Origin: Paecilomyces variotii | Taxonomy: Eukaryota | NCBI GenBank assembly: GCA_004022145.1 | Contig: RCNU01000001.1 | Reading direction: 5' to 3' (one strand) | Length of the DNA stretch: 64,000 nt | In this document: positions 42,769-61,383 of the stretch, piece after piece | Position numbering within the stretch: position 1 is the stretch's first letter | Layout: every line of letters starts with the position of its first letter | Translations under genes and position numbers: made by a program | Notes under the pieces: model-generated | Seen by the model: the letters and a program-made list of their open reading frames with translations, nothing else | Databases searched by the model: none | What the model was told of the DNA's origin: nothing

Positions 42769-43544
42769 AATATCGCGGCCTTAAAGAGTTTAATGTTAAG
42801 GAAACGCAGGGTTAATTTTTGATAGTAATCTGCATTGCGCAGATAATTATAGAGCTTATTATTTAATTAGAAGATTGTCTAGTACAGCTAATATTTAAAT
42901 ATAGGAGCAATCTGTGTAGTATAGTTAGCATAGGTGTTATAGTTGTTATCGCCGTATTCTATATACTAAGGGTCGTTATATCCAGCTTAATAGCTGTCTT
43001 AGTAGTAACTCTTATATTCCTCAGAAAAATTAATTAGATTAGGGGTCTGATCTAGGGCTGCTGTATTATATATTTCTAACTTATAAGTATTATAATTGCC
43101 TTACTGCCTATAGTTCCCTTCTGCAATATCTATAGATTGCCCTATTTTAGCACTTGTATAGGCCGCAGCTTAAGGCTATACTAGAAAAGGAGGGCCTTAA
43201 TTGCTAGTATTATTTATATATTATTATAAGTAGGTCCTGTTTAAAGCTTATTAGTTCTAATTATTATATTAGTTCTAGCTATTATATTATAGGAACTAGC
43301 GTAATTATACTAGGGGTTAGCCTAGATTTTAAGTCTAGCGCTATAGCGTCTAATACTGCTGTACCTAAGCCGGTTAATATAATATTAAATAATTAGGATA
43401 GTTATAGCCTTAATAGTTCCTATTCTGTATAAACTATTATAAGGCTTTATCTCTAGTCTGGTTAGTATTATTAGTACTATCTTAGTTCTGCCTTAAGGAA
43501 TTTAAGAAGGGAGAATAATAGGAAAAGGTAGACTAGTTATATAG

Positions 43545-43750
43545 GTAGTTCGGTTCGGTTTGGGGGAGGGTTGGACCGCCTATAGCGGGTTTTAGTTTAG
43601 GGCAGAAAAACCATACCTAAACTGAACTGTATTCTGGCGGTTTAGTTTAAAACTAAAAAAACCAAAATATTCGCCAAGACCGGGCGCTAAACTAACTTAA
43701 GTTAGATTTTTCTTAAACGGTTTAATTTAAATGGTTTATACGGTTTACAG
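43545..43750. repeat. Left subterminal repeat array of E (cggtt/aaccg/aacta units)
   Basis: ttcggttcggtttg, gcggtttag, acggttta etc.; typical hAT transposase-binding repeats. Confidence 0.75.
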
Positions 43751-45799
43751 TGTTAAAGGTATTAATATTCTATATTATTTTATATTATTATTAAATTTAT
43801 ATCCTTTTAAATCTATAGCTAAAAAATAGTTTAGATATAATATTATTATATTAAATCTAAAAGTATAAAGATAGTCTTTTAAGATATTATTAAATATTAA
43901 TATAGACTTTAAAATAATTGTTATAGAAATATATATATATATTTATAAACTATAGTGCTAATAGAGTATTATTAAACAATATATATAATTTATTATAAAA
44001 GCTAAAGTTATTAAACTAAAGAATAGATTTTATTTACTATTATTATTCTTAATAGAAAGTAATTTCTAGATTATTCTTTTAATAAATTAACAATAAAATC
44101 TATATATAATTAGTAAGTTATAACTTCTACAGAAAATATATAAATTCTATATATTTATAAAGCTTACTAAAATTCTAACTTAAGTTTAAACTATTAAAAT
44201 TATATTATTCTTATAGCTATTTTTTTTTTATCTGGATATAGTTTTTAAGTCGAATATTATTTTTTTGTAATAGATAATCCCCCAATTAAACTATTTAATA
44301 TAGCCATTCTATTGTAAATTACAGATACTTATTTTACCTTAATTTGGCTCTATTAATATAATACTATAATAATAAAACTAAGGTCTTTTTTTTTACTAAT
44401 TTTAAGAAATAATTCTATGCTAGAAGAAGAAATTAATATAGTTATTTTTAGCCAAGATCTTGTAGATTATAATCCTAAATTATAAGATACTTTCCCTTAC
44501 TATTTAAGGAAGCAATTAAAGTAATCCCCTAAATATGCTAGAATTATTTATCTTAAATTAGATTAGCTACCTATATTTTTATTAGCATACTAAATATAAT
44601 AAGCTAGGTTGCTTAGTGTTTTTTTACGGTAAACTATAAGTAGAAATATATATCTTACATATTAATATTGGGCAATAAAATTTACTAATTTACCTTTTAA
44701 ATAGTATTAGGAAAAGAAAGAAAGCAAGGATAAATATAAGGGTATCCCTTAATCTTATTAAGCTAAATAAGAAATATAGCAATTTTAGATAAAGTAGCTT
44801 TAAGATTAGTAAAGATATCCTTAGGAATAATTAGATTAATCTTAACAGTAACTATTATAACCTAGGGCTAATATCTTTCTTTTCTAAAGGCGAATTAAAT
44901 AAGATAGTTTTAAAAGAGAAATATTAAGATTTTATAAAGTAATAATTAAAAGAAATTATAAGTTATTTATTATTATAATAGCTCTAGGTGCAGAGGGCAG
45001 TTTAAATAAATAATCTAAGCTAGAAAAGAGCATTTTAACTTAAGTTAGAATATACTAGAAGGTTATATTTAAAGTATTTAGTATTACTTTAGCTATATTA
45101 CCAAATAAACTAACTGTCGCCTATATATAATTTGGCCTATAGAGGAATAAGATAAATAATAAATATTATATGCTAATCTTTTAATTAAATATATCTAACT
45201 AAAACCTAAGAATCTAAAGCGCCTTTAAGATACTACTATAAACTATTAAGAAAGAAATATAAGCAGTAAGTTATTATAAGATATTACCGATAGTAAAGAT
45301 AATAACAAATTAAATATATAATAGACCTACTTATAATTTAACTTAAGTTAGAATTTATAAGTTTAGTCTCTAAAAAATAGGTAAGGCTTACTTATTTAAT
45401 TAGCAATAATCTTACTAGTAATAGTTAATTAGAGCAGTAATAGAATAATTAATAAGGGAGCCTAGGGAGTCTCTAATATTATATACCTATATATATGCGA
45501 TTTCTTAATTAGGTATAGTCTATATTAGGAGTATATATATTATATTATTTTTTCTTTTACTATATTTATTTTTTTCACTAAATATACTCTTTAATAAAAA
45601 GAGTGGATTTTAATCTAGTTAGAATTCAATTAAAGAATTCTAGGTAAGGAATAACGCATAGACTAGATAACAATTTAACTTAAGTTAGATTATTTTTAAG
45701 GATATAAGGGAAGATTATTATATATTATTATAAGTCACTAACCCTACTATAATTAAAATTCTAACTTAAGTTAAAGGCTTTATAACTTTACTTATTAGA

Positions 45800-48700
45800 G
45801 AGATAGCACAAATAATAAAAGCATCTATTAGATAATAAGGCAAACTCTCTAAGATTTTAGTGTAAAAAACCCAGCTAAAAGTATTAATAAAAGAGACCCA
45901 AGACTTATAATTATAGCAATTCTATAGAACCCTATTTAGATTTTAAGCCTATTTAGATTAATATATTATATAGGCTAAAGGCCTGCATAGCTAAGGCTAA
46001 AGTCTTTTTAATAATAAGAGATAATATAATCCGCGCAGAGCTCAAGAATAAATATCTAGAAATATTATATATAGATATAAAGAAGCTTAAAATATCTTAG
46101 AAAGATATAGAATACAATTAAGATATTAATACCAATTATATTAAGAATTTAAAGAATAAGTTCCGCATTAATATGCGGAGATTCGATGTTAATATATAAA
46201 TAAAAGCGACCCTAAGCATTAAAGACTTTAACCTAGCATTACAGGCATATATAGCAGAATTATTAAAATTAATAGATATTAGCAATATCTACAATCTCTT
46301 AAGGCAGCGGCAGGATAAAAATAGCAATTTTTTTATCTACCTAGAGAAATAACTAAAAGGGCTCGCGTTACTAATATTATAAGCCGGGCAATATTATTAT
46401 ACAGCTCTTTTAAAGCTGCTAACTAAGCAGAAAGAAATAGCTGCTGCTAAAGCTATTAATTATAAAGGAAAGATAATTAAAAGACTATAGGCTAATATAT
46501 ATTCTTATTTTAATTTAAATTAGAATTTAGCTAATTAATCTATAGGCATATCTCTGGGTTATTAATCTCTATAATAAGGCAATATTATTAGAAGTTCTTA
46601 CAGCATTATAATCTAATTATAAAGATATTACTCGCATTAATACTAATAAAAAATATATGCTTTTACTTATTAAGGAGTAAGAAAAGAAACCTATAGATTA
46701 ATACAAGGAACTGCTAAAGAACTATAAAGAGTTTAAAAATTAAGCATATCTTATTATTAATATATTATTTAATTATACAGCTTATACTATAGCCCCTTTA
46801 TATAATAATATTTAGTTATAATATTTATAGGAGTATTTATAGACAGCTTATAATTACTCTTATTAGAACTATATATTAGGAGAGATAATTATAAACATAA
46901 AGCTAGATCAAGTATATTTAAGGATCTAATTTTAATTTTAATTTTCTAACTTAAGTTAGATCTAGATTATAAAGTTTAAGAAATTTTTTAGCTTTGCTAA
47001 GATAATCTTTATAGATAAGTAAAGCGGAATAATATTAGCAAAAAATTAAAAACTAATTACTAAATATTACTACAGCGCGAGCAACTATACCTTATATATA
47101 TTATTTTTTCCTTTGTAGGCAGATTATAAAAATAATAGACTTAAGCTATCTTTAAATCATAGGTAGTTTAATAAATAATTATTGCCTTACTTAAAGATTC
47201 TTATACTATCTCTTAAAAACTCTATTTAATAACTATCTTTCCTTATAACCCTGCTAGATAAAGTATATATATAAATATAGAAGAATATTTCAGAAAATAG
47301 AGAACTTAAGTTCCCCTTATAATAAGTTCTAACTTAAGTTAGATATAAAAATTAATTATAAACTAATTATTATAAGAGCTTATAAATTAATCTTAATAAT
47401 AAAATTAGTCTCTTATTAAAATCTATGCTAAAATATATTATATTTTAATATAATTTAAAATAACAGTATCCTGCTACAGCCTCTAAATATCTCTAAGAAT
47501 TTTAATAGATAAATAAACTTTAATATTTCCTCTTTTATAAATCTAATAATATATATATTGTTAAGGGCTTTATAGAAAAACTTATTAATAAGCTTTATAA
47601 AGACTCCCTATAAACCTAGGCAGATCTAAAGCATTATATAATAACCTTATTTAACTATAATTAGAATTAATACTAATATCTTTTAGCTGCTAAAACTATA
47701 TAGCAACCTCTGCTTCTAAAATATTAAAGAATAAAATAGTTATAACTAATAATATATATATCTTTCTTATTTTAAGCGGCATTATTAGGCCTATATCCTT
47801 TATATAACTTCTGAAGTAGTCCTACTTAACTTTAAGAGCATTATAAATTAATTTAATAATAAGAGCGAGATTATAAATCTAGACTATTCTAACTTAAGTT
47901 AAAACTAATATAATATAGGGTAAATAACTTTCTACCTTTACTATCTTTAGTAGTATTATATAATAAGCCCAATTCTAATATAATAATATAGTAAAGAACC
48001 TGAGAATCCTAAAAATTAACTAATATAAAGATAACTTAAAGATTTAATCTAATATTGCCAGGGCTCTATAAATATATTAATCTATTAAGAGAAACATAAT
48101 TTATATTATAAAGCTTAGCTTTTCTAAGACTAATAATTATAAAAAGGATTCTAAGGATCTTATTAAGACTAAGGTATATATACCACTAATTTAACTTAAG
48201 TTAGAAATTAACCTAATTTAAGAAAAATAATATTAGTGCTTACAGGCACTAAGAGAGGTTACCAATCTTTTAATTAAGTAGGACTAGGCTTTAAATATAA
48301 ATAATATAAATAAATATCTATAGCGCTTTACACTAGACTATAATCTTAAAATTAAGAATAAATATACTATTTAGAAAAAGTTATATACGCCTTTTTTAAC
48401 CTTATTAAACTAACTACTAATAAATAAATGCCCTTATAATAATAATAAAAAATAATATAAGCTAGAGAATTAGAAACAGCTCTAAGCCATTACTTTTAAT
48501 ACCCTAAAAAAGAAATAGAAAGTATTAAAGGATTCTATAGATAAATAAATTAATATATCTATTCTAACTAAAGTTAGAATAAGATTTAATTAAAATTCTA
48601 GATTAAGATGTAGAGACTAATAGGGCGAATAATATGCCTTAAAAGAATAATATAGATAATAATAATAAAGGTAAGTTATTTTTCTTACTAATTATATTAT
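45800..48700 (+). pseudogene. Multi-exon cargo gene relic, DUF3723-like / ParB-DGQHR-like protein
   Basis: De-RIPed reading ~46027-46420: IRAELKNKYLG...YNRDIDTNHVKNLKNKFR..MRRFDV...LVLQAGQHRxAALLEL; next exon ~46547 AYLWVIDLYD; family call by motif recall only; boundaries approximate. Confidence 0.55.
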
Positions 48701-49229
48701 TAAATAGTTATAATAATATTATTATTATAAGTATAAAAGCGGGGCTAAGTTTTTAATTTAAATTTAAGTTTTTTAGTTTAGCTCTAGGTAAGCTATCTTA
48801 ATAATATTTACTTAATATATAAGAAACTAATTTAAGTTAAAAGTAAAATAATTAGGTTTTTTTTAGACTAATAATATAATCTCTACTTTTAAGTTAAATT
48901 ACTTAAGAATAGTTTTCCTCTAGTAATAAGAACTTATATTATTTAAAAGCTTTATCTCTAACTTAAGTTAGAGTAGATTTTATTAATAAAACAGAAATTA
49001 GTTTTTAAAGATTTAATTTAAGTTAATATAGCTATTGCTTTTTATTTCTATTTTAAGATAATAATTAGAGATAAAAAAGTAAGACTGTAAAGATAGGGAC
49101 TATAGAATAGAAGAAAAAAACAATATATCTTAATAATTTAGGCTGGCTCTATAGTAACTTAAGATATAAATATATCTAAGCAAGAATCTAACTTAAGTTA
49201 AAATATTATAGATATTATACTGCCGCCAA

Positions 49230-52060
49230 TATTATTATCTTTAAATTTCTTTTTCTCCTTGCTTTATTTTAATAGAGATATATTAAGATTATCGGGTCCT
49301 TTATTATAGTTTTAGAATTATATTATTTATACTCTTACAGAGACCTATAAGACTTCTTTATTTTTAGATATTAATATTTAAGATATAAATTTTAATTATA
49401 ATCCTATTAAATAATATAAGCCCTAATCTAAAGCTAATACTCCTAACTTAACCGAACTTAAGATAATAAGATATAATTAAGGAAAGGCTATTATCTATCT
49501 AGCTCTTCTAGAACAGGTTTAGATTTTTAAATCTTAATAAAGTAAAATAGAGTTTATAAAATAGCAGTCTAAGTTTTAATAAATAAAAATAAAGACTTAA
49601 TTATATATATAGCAATATTATTAAGAAGTTACAAATAATATTTCTAGCGTCCCTTATATATAATATTTATATTGCTCTATATTTTTTTAATATCCTTATA
49701 AAAGAGGAAATAGCACTAGCTTAATAGCCGCCTATATAAAAAGAGCTATATACTAATCTAGAGATAAGACTCAGAAAAATAGCAATATTTAAAATATATT
49801 AATTATAAAGGTAAGAACTAGATAATTAATATAAACTTTATTACTGATATTTTCTTTAGAAAACTTTTAATCTAATATATATACCAGATATATTATATAA
49901 TTAGATTCTGTATTTTATTATAGGATATTGCCAATTGTTTTAAATAGTTAAATATATTTAGTTCTGCTATATATTATATATAGCTGCTGGTAATTTATAT
50001 CTAGAGTTACTTAACCAATATTAGATTTAAACACGCCTTTTTAAACTTAAGGAGATCAATTATATTAAAATACTGTTATATTTATTAGAATAAGGAAAGA
50101 TTTCTCTAGTATTAAATTATTAGACTAATTAAAATTAATATTCTTTTCTTATTATAACTAGGTATTTTATTAATATAAAATAAGTATATAGAGAAATATT
50201 TTTAACCTTTAATTCTGTTTATAGATTATATATTAGGAAAAACTTAGCTAAAATACTACTAAAGAATCTTTATTAATATAATCTATAATATTAGATCCTT
50301 ACTATTATTATAGATAATATAAGTAATAATACTACCCTAATAGCGAAGCTAGATAAAAGCCTAAGAGATAAGCTTAAAACAGATTTATTATTAGAAGATT
50401 TCTAAGATATAATATTAAGTTAACTTATTTTAAATCGCTATTATATTCTATATTTAGCATATATTTTATAACTTACAGTTAATACTTTGCTAAGCAAACT
50501 TTATATTAATACTTTTATTAATAATAGTATTAATTAAGATATAAAAAAGGATAGAGGCTTATTATATCTTTAGGGTATCCTAATATTATTAAAAAAAGTA
50601 TTCTCTATCTAACTTAAGTTAGATTAATACTAACAGATTTCTGTATAGGTTTATAAGATTACTAGATTTATTAATGTAAGCCCTTAGCATTGGGAATATT
50701 TCCTAATACTATAATAATCAAATACTAGTTAGCTAAAATTATTACTTCTTAATTGCCGGACATAATAGAATTTAATATATCTTATACTTATATATGCCCT
50801 TAAACTGCGTGCAGTAATTGGACGATTTATTATATTATAAGCTAATAAAGATATTTGTTTTCTAATATTATCCCCTACTAAATGGCGTCAGGTTAAATAT
50901 CTTATTAAGTTAACCTAGCTATTTTATAATCTTATTCTCGCTGTATTAAAGATAAACAGTCTATTAATTTATAGGGTTTTTAAAATCTATAATACTATCT
51001 TTAATTATCTTAATAATTATATAAAACATTTAAAATTAAAAAGAGCTATATAGAAGATCTAACTCCGAGATGCTTTATCTAAAGCTTATAATAAGTTACG
51101 AACTTATTATGCCAAAATATATGAATCTTAAGGATTTATATATACAATTATAACAATTTTTTACCCCAGCGCAAAACTTAAATATTTTAAAACTTAGGTC
51201 TAGTAAGATATAATAAAAAACTGGTATAATACTTATAAAAAGATTTTTTATAAGGTATTTTAATACTACAGTAATTAAAATCTAAATATTAAGATATAAT
51301 TAAGAACCTATTTATTAGTCTTAACCTTAGATTATATGCTTACACGATCTAAATATTATTATTTCTCTTTAAGTACTACTAGTACTTATTAAGAAATTTA
51401 GACTTATCTTACTAAAAGTAATGTTCTATCTAATATTATATCTAAATCACATAATATTATTCTAACTTAAATTGGATTAGGTTTATCAGAATTAGATAAT
51501 ATCCTTAACTATTAGAGAATTAATAAACACTAATTCCTAATTCTTATAATAATAGCCTGAGATTTTCTTATAATCCCATTAAATAGTATTAGTATAGAAC
51601 AATTATTTAATAATACTTAAGATATCTGCTATTATTAATATAGCTAATTACTTCTTAATATAATCTATACTTTAATACTTCTTATATATACTAAAAATTT
51701 CACTATTTAGCAGGAGTTTAAGGCAATAACTAATAATATAGATATAACACCTGATAATCAATAATTTAAAAGGGAGAAGATTAAATCGCCAAATCTAATT
51801 AGTAATAATAAAGATATAGATAATATATTAGAAGGAAAGATAAATATAGATAATAAAGATTATTAAATAGAGCAGTTTAGGGGTTAAGGTCTTTTAAATA
51901 TTTAAATAGATTAACCTATTATTAAGTCTACTTATAATAAAGGAGAATAATTAGATAAATTGCCTATACCTAGAGTTTCTATGTATCCTTGGAGAAACAC
52001 AGTAACTATAGATAAACCTAAGTCTTCTAGTTATTGCTTATACCAGATTAACTATATTAA
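49230..52060 (+). pseudogene. hAT transposase relic with introns
   Basis: De-RIPed: ILTITxDNASNN (~50295-50330), PCLAHILQL (~50447-50475), DCRTRWNSTYLML (~50750-50790), RDFLxIPxSGVGVERLFNSARDIC dimerisation domain (~51558-51630); introns ~50575-50648 and ~51418-51480. Confidence 0.88.
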
Positions 52061-52229
52061 AGGCTAATATAAATATTAAGAATCTAACTTAAGTTAGACT
52101 CTAATATTATATTCTAATATTATTCTACTAATTTTTAGTTAATATTTAGTAATAGATATTATAAAGAAATAAAAATCTAAATAGTTCTTAAAGATTAATA
52201 AGATTTATATAAAAATTCAGATTAATCTA

Positions 52230-52420
52230 AAGTAACTAAAAAAAACTAAAAAAACTAAATTAAACCAAAAAACCCAAAAAAACTAAACCTAAAAAAACTA
52301 TATAATGCACTATAAACTATCAGTTCGGTTTATAAAGTCTATAAACCGTTCCGGTTTATAAAATTATAAACCGAACTAAATTATAGGCAGTTCAGTTCGG
52401 TTTAGTTCGGTTTTTTTAGT
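52230..52420. repeat. Right subterminal repeat array of E
   Basis: aaaacta/aaacc/aaccg/ttcggtt units. Confidence 0.75.
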
Positions 52421-54653
52421 TTTCTATAACTACTCTAGGAAAAGGTTCTAATATTATTATAGTTATATTGTTAATAATAGTATTAATTCTCTTTTACCTA
52501 TTTTTGCTATACTATATAAGCTTTTTTAACTATTTAGATAAAGTCTAACACTGTAATATTTTCTTATAGCGCTTATATATCGCGCTTAAATAATAGGGAA
52601 AACCTGTTTTATACAGCTAAGAGTTAACTATATATTTCTTTTATTCCTATAGCGTTTAATAAATATAATACTTATTAAATAAACTCTTAAGGAATTTAGC
52701 CCGCTATAATGTCCTATATAATATAATATAAAGACTTAAGCTATTTTATAATAGCTACAGCATTAATCTTAAAATATTTTATAAGCTATAAAATCTAACC
52801 TTCTTTAATAAGACGCATATATAAAACTTTATAATTATAGTTAGATAGCTTAGCTATATATTATTATAGGGCTAAGCTATATAATAATACTTAAATATAG
52901 CTTTATATAATAGGTTCCTCTTTTATCGCAGCTAAATTACAGATCTAATTAATAAAAATATAGATATCCTTATAATAAGTATAACTTCCTATTATTATAA
53001 TAGGACCTATTCTAATATAGTCTTTATTACTTAAATTAAGGTAAAAATATTCTAGCTTTATTTGCTTCTATAGCATATTATTAACTATAGTACTTATTAG
53101 TATTCCTGAGGCAAATCTAGCATTTAAGTTTACTAAGAGATTATAGCTAAGAGTTTAGTTTTAAACTAATTACTGCTATTAGTCTTGCTATTATTAATAT
53201 TGCTATTATTAATGCTAGTATTAACTGTTATTTTAATCTATATCATTTTAAGCTATATTATTTTAAGCTATATTATTCCGATTTATAAGGTATTTTATTA
53301 TTTAGCGATTTTAGTCTAATATAGCCTTTATATTTTCTACTATTTACCAATTAGATTCTATTATTTATTAAAACATCTCTATTAATATAGTATTAGAGTC
53401 TATAGCCGGCAGTACCGGGGGTATAGCTGGGTTAATAATATTTACTATACTATTAATGTTTGCTGCTAGCTATATTAAGGTTTTATCTAAATAATATATT
53501 AGTAAATCTAGGAAGGAACGCGGTAGATTAAATAATAAAACCCTCTAATATTTAGCGCTCTAGCTCTAGAAAATAGAATTCTGAAGTCTAAGAACCAGAT
53601 TAAATAAAGCTAGGCAAGGAAGTATAGCAACTAGGATTTATAATCTAGGTTACTTCTGCTAGTATTTATCTTATAATAAAACTATAGAGGTACTATAAAA
53701 ATATATAAAATATAGTTTACTTAGCGGCTATATAGGTTCTATTATAAAATTAGCTAAGTCTGCTATATTAATCTGTTACTTCTAGAAGGCAGGGTGCTTT
53801 ATTAATATTAAGGTAAACTTAAGAAAGTCTTTAACAGTACTATAGAGTATAGATTAATTTATTACCTATAACACAAGAAATATAAATTATTTTATTTAAG
53901 GAGGAGATACCTATAGCTTAATCTAAAACACTTTAATATAGGCTAATAAGGTATACTTTAAGGAGTTATATTCTAGGTAATAGGATAAGATAAAATTAAT
54001 AAGATTAATAGTTTTATAGTTAAACTAATCCCTAAACTAAGAAGTTACTGTTTAAAACGCTGCTAAACTATATATAAGCTCTAATATTTTTTTAAATAGT
54101 GCAGGGAGATATTAGCTTTAATCTAAATATTAGCTCTAATCTATCTCCTCTAAAAGTTAGCTTATTATAGAGGCTTAACCTTAGCTTCTCTAGGCGAGAT
54201 GCCTAGTAGGGGAGACTAAAGCTAAATTATAATAATACTAGAGATAAAAATAATAAAACTAATAATAAAATACAGAATTCTAATAAAAAAAGTAGGGCTT
54301 TAAATATAAGTATTCTTAGCTAATCTATAATATCTCTAGGCGTAAGATATATAATAAAGTGGCTTAATATAAATAATTTCAATAATAGACATTAAATTAG
54401 GAGTAATAGAGGCAGAACTTAATAATATTAAGATAAATCTTAATAAAAAATAATATAAAGAATAGATAATATGAAGACTCTGCTAATAATAAATAACTTT
54501 ATATATAATAGAGAAGAGACTGCGGATAACCCGCTAGCGTTAAGAGCTAGCTTAAAATAATAATAATTAAATAATACAGCAGATTATTATAATAGTTTTT
54601 AGGATACTTCTAATAATAATTAAGCCCTAGATAACCTTAATATACTACTAAAT

Positions 54654-55854: not shown

Positions 55855-57187
55855 ATAGTAATAAAGTAGCTAAATAGAAGGATTTTATAAGCCTATATTT
55901 AGAGCTTTAGCCGGGGCTAGTTTAATAAAATTAAATTATTCCTATTAAGATTCTTTTCTTCTATAGTTTATATTCTCTTTAAAACTCTTAAACCTAGTAA
56001 GAAAATAAAGAAAGAGTAATATATATAATAATATATTTAATAATAGTTAAAAAACTTAGTAGGAGAAAAAGTATTATTACTTATTTATCTTACTTTACTT
56101 TCTATTTTTTAGCTTTTTTTTATATTATCTTTACTTAGGCGGCTTATTTATATTAAAAGCCTTATTAGAGTTTTTACTGCAATACTCCTTTAAAGCTTTA
56201 GTTATATATAAGATCTTCTAATGGCTGCTATAAGTTCTTATATAAGGGATATTTTTTTTATTTTATTAGGAACTGTATTTTCCTATAAAAGGTTTATTTA
56301 TTAAAAATTTCTTCTATCTCCTATTTTTATTCTCTATTAATAAAAATTAGATCTAGCTATTTAGGTTTTATTCCTTTTTATTAATTATAGGGCTTTAGCA
56401 GAGATATATAGAATATTAAATATATCCTGCCTAGGCTCTTTAGCAGTTATAATTAGTATACTTACTTTTTAATTATTTTAATTATTTTATAGGGCCTAGA
56501 AAATCTGTAATTTAACTTCTTATTAGGTTAATTAGTTTATAGATTCTTTATTAATAAAAGAACTTTATCTCTTATTTTATATAACTTAGGCGTATACTTC
56601 TTATTATAGTATTTTACTTGCACCTTAATAGCGCATTATAAATATTTTTTTAACTTTACCTTAATATTTATTAATTCTTTAAGTTATTCCTTAATAGTAG
56701 GAATATTTAACCTTATTCTAGTATTATATTTATTTTAACTATTAGGATTAAAGCTATAAAGGGCTTTAAATAGCAAATATCTAATACTAGAATATTTTAT
56801 ATTATTATAAGTATATTCTGCTGTACTTAATAATAACGCCTAGTTATTTTAATAATAATTTATATATACCCTTAGGTAATACTCTAAGGTTTAATTCTAA
56901 TACTTTATCTGCCTATTTATCTGTAAATAAAAAGCAGTGCTTATTAATTAGGTAATCTATATATATTAATAAAGCTTAGTCTAGTATTTACTAATAAATA
57001 CTAATTCTTAATTAAAGATAATTAATATTAAAGGGCTAAATTAATAATATACCCTTTTTATAATTAGGTTAGCTAGGTCTTCTACTATAATTATTTCTTA
57101 AGTTAAGATATATAAAGCTATCTTAAAGTATTAGTCTACAACTATTAAGATTATATTATATTTAACTCTTTATTAAGTTAAAGATAA
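55855..57187 (-). mobile_element. Chromovirus F fragment (integrase core, GPY/F motif, chromodomain); host of A6 and C
   Basis: Minus strand de-RIPed: YDAILVVVDRYSK (~57125-57165), FLGPYKI (~56485-56503), FHVSLLEPY, chromodomain WEIEEI...FLVKWKGYP..ENSW (~56200-56330). Confidence 0.82.
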
Positions 57188-57528
57188 TATTATAAGAAAG
57201 GGTATTAAGACTTAGCAGTAAGTCTTAGAGCATAAGAATATAGAGAAAGGGAAGAATAGCTTAAGTCTTTAGGCCCTAAGATTAAGCTAGAAAAGAAGCT
57301 TAGAGAATAAGGTAGTATAATAAAAAAAAGGTTACTTTAATACTAAACTAATATTAAAATATAACTAAGAGGGGATTATTTATTTTATTCTATATTAACT
57401 AATTAATTAATGCCCTTTCTCCCCTTATATCTTATTAGAAATATTTAAGCTACCTTTTTTAATAATAGTATATAACTTGCTAATCTAATTATATTCTTAA
57501 AACCTCTTTATTATTTTCCCTTATTATA
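57188..57528 (-). repeat. 3' LTR of A6
   Basis: 341-bp family A LTR. Confidence 0.93.
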
Positions 57529-60500
57529 TAGCCTCCCCTTTTTTATATATAAATACCCCTATTTACCTTTTTTAGTTATTATAATTTATACTATTTCCTT
57601 TTTTTAATATTATAAATTATTCTTAAAACAGGAATATTCTAGTTTCTAATATTATATATATCTTAAAACCCCTAATTTATAAAGCTGAGTTCTTTTCTTC
57701 TGTAAATAATCTTAAACTAATAATATATCTTATTTTAGTATAAAGTATAGCTCTGCTTTAATTTTTAAGTAATTTTAATTTAGTTAATTAAGTATTGCTC
57801 TACCTATAGCTATAACTCTATTTACCTAAATATTAAAAGGCCCAGATTCTCTTTAATTAGATCTTATCTTATCTTATTTTCTATAATTAAAATAGCAGAT
57901 ATTATTAAGATTTATTCCTTAATTCTTTAATATTAGCTAATATAAATTGCTAATAAAGATTACTTCTCCTTGCTTAAGTATAATATCTCTTAAGCCTATA
58001 ATTTTCTTAAACTTATCTTTAATAATTAGTCTAGTCCCTAGGATTATAAAGCCCTAGCCTATTCTTTTTTTAAGGATTATAGTCTCTATGTTTAATACTC
58101 TTAGCTTATATTTTTTAAGATACTAGACCTATAATCTATATTTATTATAACTATATAATATTAACTAGATTAAATAAATCTAGATATTTTGCGCAATAAC
58201 CTTCTAAAAAATATTTTAAGATAAGTTTTTAAGCCCTATTAATTCTTTATCTTCCTTTTTATAATAAAGGGCTGCTTTTGCTTCTATAATAATATATTAT
58301 AATATTTCTTTTACTAATTTCTCTTTAAAAGGTATAATTTAAAAAACCCTATTTATTTCTTAATAATTAAAGTCCTCCCTTATTATAATATCTAATTAGA
58401 TATATTAATTCTATATCTTATTTAAAGTAAAGTTTTTTTTGCTTAAATTAAAATATTTTTTGTCTCTATACTTAGATTTAAGATATTTTTTAACCCTATA
58501 TAGATTATCTTAAGCTTTATAATATAAGCTGCTAGGTATATTATTAGAAGTATTTATATTAATTAACCTAAGATCTCTAAATAGTTAAACTATTCTTAAT
58601 ATTAGGGATTTCTTAGAGAGAAGATCTTTAGATAAGGTTTTTTTAATTTCTATATTATCTTTATCTTTTATATTTTTAAGACTTCTTAGAATAAGACTTT
58701 TTATTTTTTTTTAATCTGGCTATTGCTAGATATACCTAATATTTATTTAACCTCTAAGTTATTTTTAAATTATATAGTTTTAATATTTCTTATATTTTTT
58801 AAGTACCCAGTTTCTTTCTTAATAAAGGGATCTTTTAAGTTTACCGCAGAAAAGGAGGGCTTTTTAAGATTTTTTTTTATTTTTTAATTTATTAATCTAA
58901 ATTACTAGAGGCGCTTATTTAAATTTAATATTATTTAAAAAGTTCTGTAGCTACTCTTCTAATAATATCGCTAATAAATAATATATATTTTTAAAAAAGG
59001 CTTTTATTTACTGCTTTATAGCTATTAGCATTATTTTAGTTATTATTTTTAAAACTTCTCTAGTATTTCTAGCTAATATTTCTTTTTTTACCCTTATTAT
59101 ACCCGCTAAAAGGCATATATAGAGTTTATAAATCTCTTAAAGCTTCCTTAATATTAACTAGTATAATGCCTCTTTAATATCCTTTTCTATTATTAATTTG
59201 CTATTAATTTAGCTCTATTATAGTAAGTTATTTTTATTACTGCAGTTATAGTCCTTAAAAAATATATTTAGATAAAAGCCGTATTAAAACTACCTCTAAT
59301 ATTTATTATATATTAATAAGTTATAGAGATTATTATTATTTTTAGTAAATATTTTTAATCTTTTCTTTAATAATTTTTCTTTTATTATATATATATTTAA
59401 TATTATTTAAATCTTATTAGCATACTTATAATAGAGTTTATTAATATTAGTTCCCCCTTATTAAAGGCTATTTATAACTTTTTTATTTTTTTAGCTAAAA
59501 AGCGCCTTTTTAAGTAGTTCTAATATCTTAGTCCTATAATTATAGCCTTTTTTTATTTATTTTTCTTTTCCTTATATCTTAATCTTTTTCTTATCTTTAA
59601 GTTTCTTAGGGCTTTTTATTTTTTTTTATCCTTTTTTTCTTTTTTTATCTTATTATTTTCCTTATTGCTAATAATAAGATTAACTAATAAGCTCTTTTTT
59701 AGGTCTTTAATTATTCTTTTTGCTTTATATTCTAGAATCTCCTTTAAAAAGAAGTCTTCTCTAATTTATATATTAATTAATTAAAGCTCTATTTTTATTA
59801 TTTTAAATAAAAACTATCTACTCTTATTAGTTATCCTTTTTAAAAGGTCTCTTATTTTTTTAATATCTATTAGTAGTAAGTTTCTTTCTAGCTATATGCT
59901 AGATTTTTTAATATTTAATAATCTATTTATTTAAGCTTATATTAAGTAGATAGCTGCTGCTCTCTACTTCTTAATTTATTTTATAATTTCTCTTAATGCT
60001 ACTAAAGTTTAATAGGCTTTCTTAGCTTATATTATTAACTAGCTAATTACTTATTCCCCTTATACCTCTATTATTATTATATATCCCTTATTTATATAAT
60101 TCTTATTCTCCCTTACTTTCTTTATTAATTTTTTAAGTTCCTTAATAGCTTTCTTCTCCTTAGCTTAAGCTTTTTTTAAAAGCTTTTATTATTTTAAGAA
60201 CTTATAATAGTCTATTATAGCCTTATTTTATTTAATTTAAAATTTTATAATAATAGCTATTACTCTAGCTATAAACTTAATCTTTTTTAATCTATTCTTT
60301 ATTATAATAATTACTCTCTTTATAAAATTATAAATCTTTCTTATAGTTATATAAATATTTATATTAAACTTTAGCAACTATTCTTATAAGATAATATTTT
60401 AAATTTAGAATATATTTTCCTCTATTTTAGCTTAGTAAGATTATATAATAGTTTTAATTTAGCAATATTTAATATAAAAAGGGGGTATAAAATAATTAGA

Positions 60501-61223
60501 CTTAAATTTTCTAATAGTATTTATAGAGAAAGAAGTAAGATTCTTAATATAAAATAAGATTTTTTTATTGTTATTTTATATTCTTTATCTAATATTTTCT
60601 TTTTTTAGTAATTAAAAGAGTTTAGCCTTACTCTTCTAATAATATATATATATTCTTTTATTTTATTTATTTTTAAGTCCCTTCTCTCCTTTAAAAAATT
60701 TAAGCGCCCTTATTTTTAATTTATTTGCTCTTTTTTACCCTAAGCTAAATCTTTATCTAATATTAAACTTACTTTATTACTAGCCTTTTACTTTCTCTTT
60801 TTTTAAGCTAATATTTTTAAAAGGAGAGTGCTAAGACTATAACTGTATATATTAATCTAGGTAATATTTAGTTTATATTATCTTTATTTTTGCTTATTTA
60901 CTAATTCTTTTACTTAGATTTTATATTATTATTTATTGCTAATATACCTCTTTAATTATCTTATAAATAATAGCCTTTTAAATAATTTCTATAAATTAAG
61001 TTCTTAAAAGCTATACTATTTAACTTCTTATACTTATAAGAACCTTTCTAAAAGACTTTTTTAATTTAATATAGTCTTAGCTAGCAATATATTAGTTTAA
61101 TAAAATAAGATATCTTAAGCTTTATATTATAAAGTAGAACTAGTTATTCTTTAATTAGTTATTCTTTATAAAGCTGCTTTCTATTATTAAAGACTTCTTT
61201 ATTAGCTTCTTTTATATACTAGA
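57188..61223 (-). mobile_element. Family A copy A6, 3' part (interrupted by D2)
   Basis: 3' LTR 57188-57528, PPT complement tagcctcccc, collinear with A1 2238-~6270. Confidence 0.92.
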
Positions 61224-61383
61224 TAATAGAGTTAGGGGATAAAGAAGTTAATTTCTATAAGCTATATAAGGAAGTAACTATATAGCTAAGTCGTTGCCTA
61301 AGGCTTCTATACCTCATACCTCTATGCCCTACTAAGATAGCAGGCGGCGCTAAGATAGCATTATATACTCTGTATCCCTGTCA
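61224..61383 (-). repeat. 3' LTR of D2
   Basis: Homologous to the D1 LTRs. Confidence 0.9.

Follow-up and report, generated by a model that had tools for sequence, protein, structure and literature searches.

Does a gene carried inside a fungal hAT transposon belong to DUF3723, a gene family of the giant Starship elements, or is it a relative with a role of its own? The question is raised by a gene at about 45963-48670 (plus strand, at least eight exons) in the 64,000-nucleotide stretch of Paecilomyces variotii contig RCNU01000001.1 analysed here, hereafter the window. The gene lies within an element at 43529-52437, a copy of a multi-gene hAT transposon that repeat-induced point mutation (RIP) has put out of action, and encodes a protein of roughly 800-900 residues, the first ~230 of which are homologous to the N-terminus of DUF3723. 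A 16-bp palindrome, found in most introns of the gene and dispersed over the element, is co-inherited with the gene across lineages. Profile and structure comparisons point to a ParB/Srx domain in the shared N-terminal region, hence the working name ParB-fold gene.

The gene and its motifs

45963..46496, plus strand: exon 1, with most of the ParB/Srx-like domain and the RIPed GQHRRAA motif at 46380-46409 (by homology)
46497..46545, plus strand: intron 1, with a palindrome at 46509, at a position shared with P0063, L044, L046 and L086 (from a spliced homologue)
46546..46911, plus strand: exon 2, with the WAVDLYD-type motif (46555) and the LRSN and DTDGE-type motifs (by homology)
46912..48670, plus strand: introns 2-7 and exons 3-8, with inferred boundaries and an uncertain 3' end (by homology to L086, L057, L043 and L046)

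A first-pass annotation, in which the RIP damage was reversed by hand, had placed a gene with a series of motifs here; the letters of the window fit that proposal, and un-RIPed relatives carry the motifs literally. Read as it stands, the window copy gives KYLE.. (from 46051), RRFD (about 46177, as proposed), stop-AGQYYYTAL (46380-46409) and WVINLYN (from 46555). A profile of seven RIPed copies read with X (X-read, a form also used for the window frames) retrieved two proteins among 1.84 billion representatives. One of them, KAJ9400980.1, annotated in Paecilomyces variotii, is a lightly RIPed copy that splices out the intron at 46497-46545, which separates the GQHR and WAVDLYD motifs, and it reads KYLG and LQAGQHRRAAL literally, just as the manual reconstruction (KYLG, LQAGQHRxAAL) had it. 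Un-RIPed relics in the same genome (loci L043-L047 and L057) carry LQ[AS]GQHRR.AL, WAVDLYD and DTDGE. The reconstructed WVIDLYD (~46550) should read WAVDLYD, the copies having A. In R-D-I-D-x-N-H-V, the R, D, H and V were RIP-compatible guesses that no copy keeps, and the metagenome homologue L086 reads REIN..IM. The arginine-motif consensus of the ParB/Srx superfamily is GxxRxxA, and a motif of this type is present as GQHRRAA or GQHRRQA in the hAT-borne protein P0063 and in L045, L046 and L086.

A palindrome inherited with the gene

The RIPed spelling of the palindrome is TCTAACTTAAGTTAGA and the un-RIPed, ancestral spelling, taken from L086, is TCTAACTCGAGTTAGA, the central CG of which explains the TA in RIPed copies. 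The element holds 19 of them (43691..52098, no strand):

first part: 43691, 44174, 44547 (degenerate, within the left gene), 45034, 45337, 45674, 45760
middle: 46509, 46945, 47328, 47888, 48190, 48563, 48826, 48957
last part: 49187, 50608, 51461, 52083

Under a RIP-tolerant 16-bp rule, these 19 sites in the element compare with none in the other 55 kb of the window, and the 14-bp core has 17 occurrences in the element against a single one elsewhere (chance mean 3.1). The mean spacing is 466 bp. Eight consensus sites are situated in mapped introns (six of the seven ParB-fold gene introns and two of the three transposase introns) and 11 in spacers or unmapped DNA; in introns 2-7 of the ParB-fold gene, palindromes stand at 46945, 47328, 47888, 48190 and 48563, with a degenerate one in intron 4. 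The P values for non-coding placement (9e-7 and 2e-8) are partly circular because the introns were located with help from the palindrome. Genome-wide there are 66 sites, and the 50 listed among them are mostly in or near copies of this hAT family. An origin of the palindrome as an artefact of RIP is ruled out by its presence in introns of un-RIPed relatives with 43-50% GC.

With up to three mismatches allowed, the palindrome is found at five of seven un-RIPed relic loci (none at L045 and L047) and at none of six other un-RIPed loci. An exact 18-mer palindrome scan of metagenome contigs, blind to protein, returned 117 stretches, and two of the 131 metagenome and viral loci scanned by palindrome (L086 and L071) encode homologues of the gene. 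L086 is an un-RIPed contig of 4.1 kb and 43% GC with an 899-codon gene containing one in-frame stop at codon 770, the protein of which is 24.5% identical to the element consensus over 298 residues (E 3e-12). All seven of its introns, otherwise unlike, carry the palindrome, and six more sites occupy its flanks. A site is also carried by an intron that the window and L057 have and L086 lacks, so that the motif accompanies the gain or loss of introns. Four palindromes stand in L071, a relative that is AT-rich and RIP-like, which suggests that this sequence was likewise repeated.

When viral and prokaryote collections were scanned for the palindrome (15 and 10 loci, respectively), no homologue of the gene turned up. 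A contig of a Bacteroidetes metagenome-assembled genome (L190, 3002-3165) has six palindromes at 21-bp multiples, with no gene homologue nearby. Long homologues, sought by word-seeded searches, were absent among 6,703 and 7,998 candidates, scans for related loci came back empty from metagenome contigs (596 pattern matches), viral contigs and plasmids, and searches of PDB sequences, PADLOC and PHROG gave nothing significant.

Relation to DUF3723

The DUF3723 model of Pfam, PF12520, has a gathering threshold of 22 bits, and canonical controls score 100-595 bits. No match was found in the window frames, P0063, the relics or L086; a Pfam search of 14 X-read window frames gave no DUF3723 and only a weak hAT match, and a search of the whole genome with PF12520 recovered only the canonical gene on contig C45 (595 bits) and no element copy. 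The HMMER check proposed in the first-pass annotation thus spoke against DUF3723 membership for the window, P0063 and L086 alike, and the DndB/DGQHR profiles that it also named matched below their curated cut-offs (P0063 against TIGR03187 DGQHR, E 7e-4 and 19.4 bits versus 58.85; DndB-type PF14072, 11.5 bits versus 29.1). A home-made hidden Markov model of 57 canonical DUF3723 sequences gave 9.5 bits at the right place in the window, at most 3.4 bits for un-RIPed fragments and -2.5 bits for the L086 protein, which is below shuffles. When the window copy was compared with DUF3723 in a RIP-aware scan, 4 of 300 shuffles reached its score and it was not the top tile; DUF3723 similarity judged from the window copy alone is marginal.

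The motif order, proposed as that of the DUF3723 N-terminus, is upheld by comparison of families. The element-family alignment matched 57 canonical DUF3723 sequences in hhalign at 83.9% (E 7.8e-6) over 149 columns, covering DUF3723 residues 15-166, with controls at 0.1% (reversed) and at most 3.6% (20 block shuffles). With in-frame intron and RIPed rows included, the match was 49% and extended to DUF3723 residue 252. Collinear over residues 15-166 are the motifs Y.G, R.I., RR.D, GQHR, W.V.LY and DGE, with ~35 extra residues around the GQHR motif in the hAT protein. Beyond the N-terminal region, no further similarity of L086 to DUF3723 was seen, and secure similarity ends at about residue 170-250, short of most of the helical rest of the 508-position PF12520 model. 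An ESM feature search ranked a DUF3723 cluster first (0.93, 150 shared features).

Unnamed clusters accounted for 23 of the 30 ESM matches, and basidiomycete and sponge clusters among them equal DUF3723 in score, a hint that a broader ParB-like group may exist in eukaryotes.

Both proteins ride in fungal mobile elements. They differ in that a Starship is a tyrosine-recombinase element whereas the present one is a hAT, and in that neither the intron pattern nor the intron palindromes of the hAT gene are shared with the canonical DUF3723 gene. That canonical gene, which is intact, lies on contig C45, 29 kb from a DUF3435 captain, and the region (247542-278897; L041, L049 and L050) is apparently an un-RIPed Starship. 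Matches to the captain model (PF11917) were confined, genome-wide, to C45 and C5, in a search that could miss a RIPed captain. By profile comparison, then, the hAT gene is homologous to the DUF3723 N-terminus and is not a PF12520 member; of the label DUF3723-like, the homology survives and the family membership does not. We infer that the hAT gene was not donated by Starship DUF3723, which would instead be a sister family sharing its domain. What Starships and this hAT would have in common is a ParB/Srx domain of ~150 residues, not the accessory family itself that had been envisaged as shared with DDE transposons.

Fold of the shared domain

A model of the canonical DUF3723 protein P0008, built from a 46-sequence alignment, reached a mean predicted local distance difference test (pLDDT) of 82.7. 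Foldseek gave no match to it at E <=0.001, its leading rows being ParB, Noc, KorB and PadC. In an unbiased VIA search of 48,161 chains, the top eight rows all belonged to the ParB/Srx superfamily (Z 7.8-5.7, next 4.8), and in a second look so did all 29 best rows (Z 8.7-5.7, next row 3.4), led by pNOB8 ParB (Z 8.7, root-mean-square deviation (rmsd) 2.9 over 100 residues) and Myxococcus ParB (Z 8.4, rmsd 2.8 over 94). Viral structure matches of the DUF3723 model agree. A Z near 8 is middling, although the consistency of the rows and the score gap make the assignment of a ParB/Srx domain to DUF3723 residues ~15-166 credible on this model. The low-rmsd fit covers residues 17-156, which coincides with the hhalign range, suggesting that Starships and the hAT share the ParB/Srx domain.

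The hAT element

43529..52437, no strand: hAT DNA transposon, 8,909 bp, RIP-inactivated (DNA search of own genome)
43521..43528, no strand: left 8-bp target-site duplication, GGAAAAGG (flank comparison of copies)
52438..52445, no strand: right 8-bp target-site duplication (flank comparison of copies)
43529..43541, plus strand: left terminal inverted repeat, 13 bp, differing from the right one by one mismatch (end comparison of copies)
52425..52437, minus strand: right terminal inverted repeat (end comparison of copies)
43551..43745, no strand: left cluster of short subterminal repeats CGGTT/AACCG (sequence scan)
52253..52412, no strand: right cluster of the same CGGTT/AACCG repeats (sequence scan)
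49218..51884, plus strand: hAT transposase, with its C-terminal dimerisation domain from about 51500 and three inferred introns (Pfam, splice inference)
44211..44900, minus strand: third gene, about 230 codons, present in the two subfamilies alike (un-RIPed relatives at other places of the genome)

A DNA search of the same genome recovered six further full-length copies at 89-91% identity and many partial ones; all seven full-length copies examined, the window copy included, are RIP-broken, and transitions account for 2131 of the 2143 polymorphic columns among copies. In all seven, hAT ends enclose the ParB-fold gene, which confirms its placement in a hAT rather than a Starship. The duplicated flanks match at 8/8 positions in five of the seven copies, at 7/8 in one and at 3/8 in one. 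The copy with 3/8 (locus L021, contig C67) may reflect recombination between copies or flanking rearrangement. The 8-bp duplication, the short inverted repeats and the dimerisation domain together assign the element to the hAT superfamily. Dimer_Tnp_hAT (PF05699, cut-off 21.4 bits) scored 24.4 bits in copy L024 and 19.9 in L022 and was not matched in L021 (three copies tested), and the window copy matched it weakly (E 0.02). A cysteine/histidine pattern near 49650-49760 of the transposase we take, by eye, to be a BED-like finger; the DDE catalytic triad was not located in this reading through RIP damage. Two of the transposase introns contain palindromes (50608 and 51461) and the first has none.

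In a second subfamily (L051, L052, L053 and L037; contigs C8, C27 and C1), the transposase half is shared from about 49167, and the left half, with the same two genes, has diverged to 65-78% identity, its ParB-fold gene and palindromes being a version peculiar to this subfamily; this arrangement suggests module exchange. Linkage of the ParB-fold gene to hAT elements is seen in this one genome, in two subfamilies; neither metagenome contig reaches a transposase. In 4/4 runs, the transposase half has twice the read depth.

Proposed mechanism and rival explanations

The ParB/parS layout consists of a ParB-type protein with a palindromic site. The present combination of a ParB-type domain, a GxxRxxA-type motif and a co-inherited 16-bp palindrome resembles it. 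Our tentative preference, held at a little under an even chance, is that the palindromes are bound by the ParB-fold protein, which would coat its own element in the manner of parS or VANC. The protein would be ParB-like, nucleotide-binding, dimeric and DNA-binding, and the palindrome its putative loading site, where the dimer would load and from which it would spread, with sites every ~470 bp marking and coating the element. Introns would provide places for sites inside genes, the palindrome being tolerated there owing to its built-in CTAAC and TTAG. The likely payoff would be an element that stays expressed or mobile in the face of silencing by the host, a service that VANC renders to VANDAL; alternatively, a long element might be compacted for transposition. 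A more far-reaching version, which we regard as possible yet doubtful, envisages a eukaryotic ParB/parS-like system in which a nucleotide-gated clamp loads at intron palindromes and coats the element, with Starship DUF3723 as a sister clamp; such a coat would resist silencing or hold the element together for transposition or transfer.

Several results weigh against binding and coating by a ParB-fold protein. The model of P0063 itself (pLDDT 39.7) was too poor to search, so the fold of the hAT protein rests on the profile link to DUF3723. That link falls to 29.3% in hhalign with own-genome sequences alone, to below 2% with single sequences and to 1.5% with the window copy alone; the 150 features shared in the ESM search fall short of the 170 usual within one family, and a second ESM query gave no information. 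A helix-turn-helix after the N-domain is conjectural: Foldseek aligns ~244 ParB columns at rmsd 11, and the good fit ends at residue 156. Srx, SerK and SbnI fit the model of DUF3723 no worse than ParB, and ParB/Srx domains of this sort also act as kinases and redox enzymes. No repeated palindrome occurs within the 20 kb surrounding the canonical DUF3723 of the same genome, and no transposase was seen beside the relics or the metagenome homologues (contigs of 1.8 and 4.1 kb). Local protection from RIP is ruled out, the RIP load being flat with distance from the sites (0.34-0.39).

Recognition of the palindrome by the transposase or by a host factor, with the ParB-fold gene as passive cargo that collected sites, appears unlikely. 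Two introns of the transposase do have sites, as do the regions near the two ends, and fungal hATs are described as carrying passive cargo, namely histone H3 (PMC6710886) and TET/JBP genes (PMC12730594). The palindrome, however, is densest in the introns of the ParB-fold gene and conserved at ~24% protein identity, and a host factor's site would be genome-wide, whereas the listed sites keep mostly to this hAT family. Sites for a hAT transposase are expected at element ends, and it is the different CGGTT/AACCG repeat that clusters there, likely representing the transposase sites.

Rather improbable is an enzymatic role of the ParB/Srx domain (as NTPase, kinase, DndB-like sensor or toxin) with the working part in the long C-terminal region and the palindrome as an autoregulatory operator or unrelated. 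The equal fits of Srx, SerK and SbnI, the weak family matches to DGQHR/DndB and the ~600 C-terminal residues left without assignment would accord with this reading, which leaves 13-19 evenly spread sites per element unexplained.

Action at the RNA level, with a hairpin over the branch point controlling splicing and perhaps autoregulated by the protein, is given a decidedly low probability. The palindrome contains CTAAC and TTAG and supplies the intron 2 acceptor in the window, L043, L044 and L086, and all seven introns of L086 carry it; but of the 19 consensus sites only eight fall in mapped introns and 11 do not, a branch site of its own stands further downstream in most introns, the first transposase intron lacks the palindrome, and strand symmetry would not be needed. 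Literal capture of a bona fide Starship DUF3723 by the hAT, to which the motif order, the profile link and the presence of Starships in the genome lend some colour, is largely refuted and highly improbable given the lack of a PF12520 match even in un-RIPed homologues, the negative score of L086 on the DUF3723 model and the differing introns and palindromes.

Comparison with known systems

Starships have four conserved auxiliary genes, of which DUF3723 is one, and its function is called unknown or likened to TIGR02168 chromosome segregation proteins in the relevant reports (10.1101/2021.12.13.472469, PMC11162782, PMC10104507, 10.1101/2025.02.28.640899). ParB is not named in the Starship papers searched for the word, though subscription papers, Repbase, InterPro or supplements could hold such an assignment.

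ParB, Noc and KorB use the palindromes parS, NBS and OB. The present site resembles these in being a 16-bp palindrome with a variable centre and many sites on one element. The proteins (PDB 7bnk, 7bnr, 6sdk, 7ol9 and 8qa8) would have the ParB/Srx N-domain in common with those studied here, as seen in the DUF3723 model and extended by profile to the hAT protein. Unlike them, the hAT-borne protein is eukaryotic, intron-rich and much longer, no ParA was seen with its gene, and its element is integrated, not partitioned.

Another parallel is VANC21 of Arabidopsis, which is reported to bind a short motif in the introns, spacers and ends of its own transposon VANDAL21 (PMC5735166). In both cases a DNA transposon has a gene for an accessory protein and has accumulated a short motif in its introns and spacers and at its ends; VANDAL21, as described there, is Mutator-like, with a non-palindromic 9-mer in tandem arrays and an unrelated protein, the function of which was shown by chromatin immunoprecipitation and electrophoretic mobility shift assay, whereas single dispersed palindromes are found here.

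Cargo-bearing fungal hATs have been described, namely the TET/JBP hAT7 (PMC12730594), a histone-H3 hAT (PMC6710886) and ToxhAT (PMC6737239), which resemble the present element in being hAT-type with extra genes. In the TET/JBP hAT7 the cargo gene is likewise upstream of the transposase in the same orientation, and this gene is one that several transposon superfamilies share (PMC12730594). They differ in that no ParB-fold gene or dispersed palindrome is reported for them in the text available, and the literature search gave no ParB-fold gene in fungal transposons and none with intron-borne palindromes. Cargo in fungal hATs and a motif-guided accessory protein in a plant transposon were thus known already, whereas a ParB-fold accessory gene with intron-borne palindromes, and a ParB/Srx fold for DUF3723, are apparently new relative to the literature searched.

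A ParB/Srx fold would make DUF3723 testable for nucleotide binding and clamp loading. Its hAT-borne sister family has a candidate site, absent at the Starship DUF3723 here, which allows a simple assay of protein plus 16-mer, and the L086 contig supplies an un-RIPed domain together with the ancestral site spelling. If binding holds, a ParB-type module would be at work on the chromatin of a eukaryote, and VANC would have a counterpart in fungi; were the sister-clamp reading true, the commonest unexplained Starship gene would gain a testable mechanism.

Further features and genomic context

The third gene had no clear match in Pfam, PHROG or PDB; the spacing of its W-H...D...C residues may point to a cysteine protease. 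Versions of it are at 44211-44900 (minus strand) in the window, L044 6814-7468 and L201 1501-2112, and an un-RIPed relative adjoins a long NLR-like gene with ankyrin-like repeats, judged by eye (L206-L209).

GC across the window is 17-33%, the whole window being RIPed fungal repeat DNA from a 30.1-Mb assembly. Another long RIPed repeat, with several direct and inverted copies, occupies 1-31700 and 57185-61335, and 52438-53500 matches a different multi-copy repeat, from which it follows that the hAT landed in older repeats. In reads and contigs of four runs, all 30 bins of the window were covered, mostly with transition differences, and no piece spanned the hAT element; these runs therefore neither show nor exclude an intact copy, and their run shares of 0.13-0.16 were not used as habitat evidence. 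Genome contigs C42 and C23 match at >99.6%, and C43 yields the same protein hit, so that these are probably assembly duplicates.

A non-autonomous derivative of ~495 bp retains both hAT ends and one palindrome (L035 7401-7895; L052 3364-3858). One hAT copy on contig C56 (L026 8942 to L027 6047) carries, near window position 51970, a 6-kb insertion with ends resembling long terminal repeats and an apparent 5-bp duplication.
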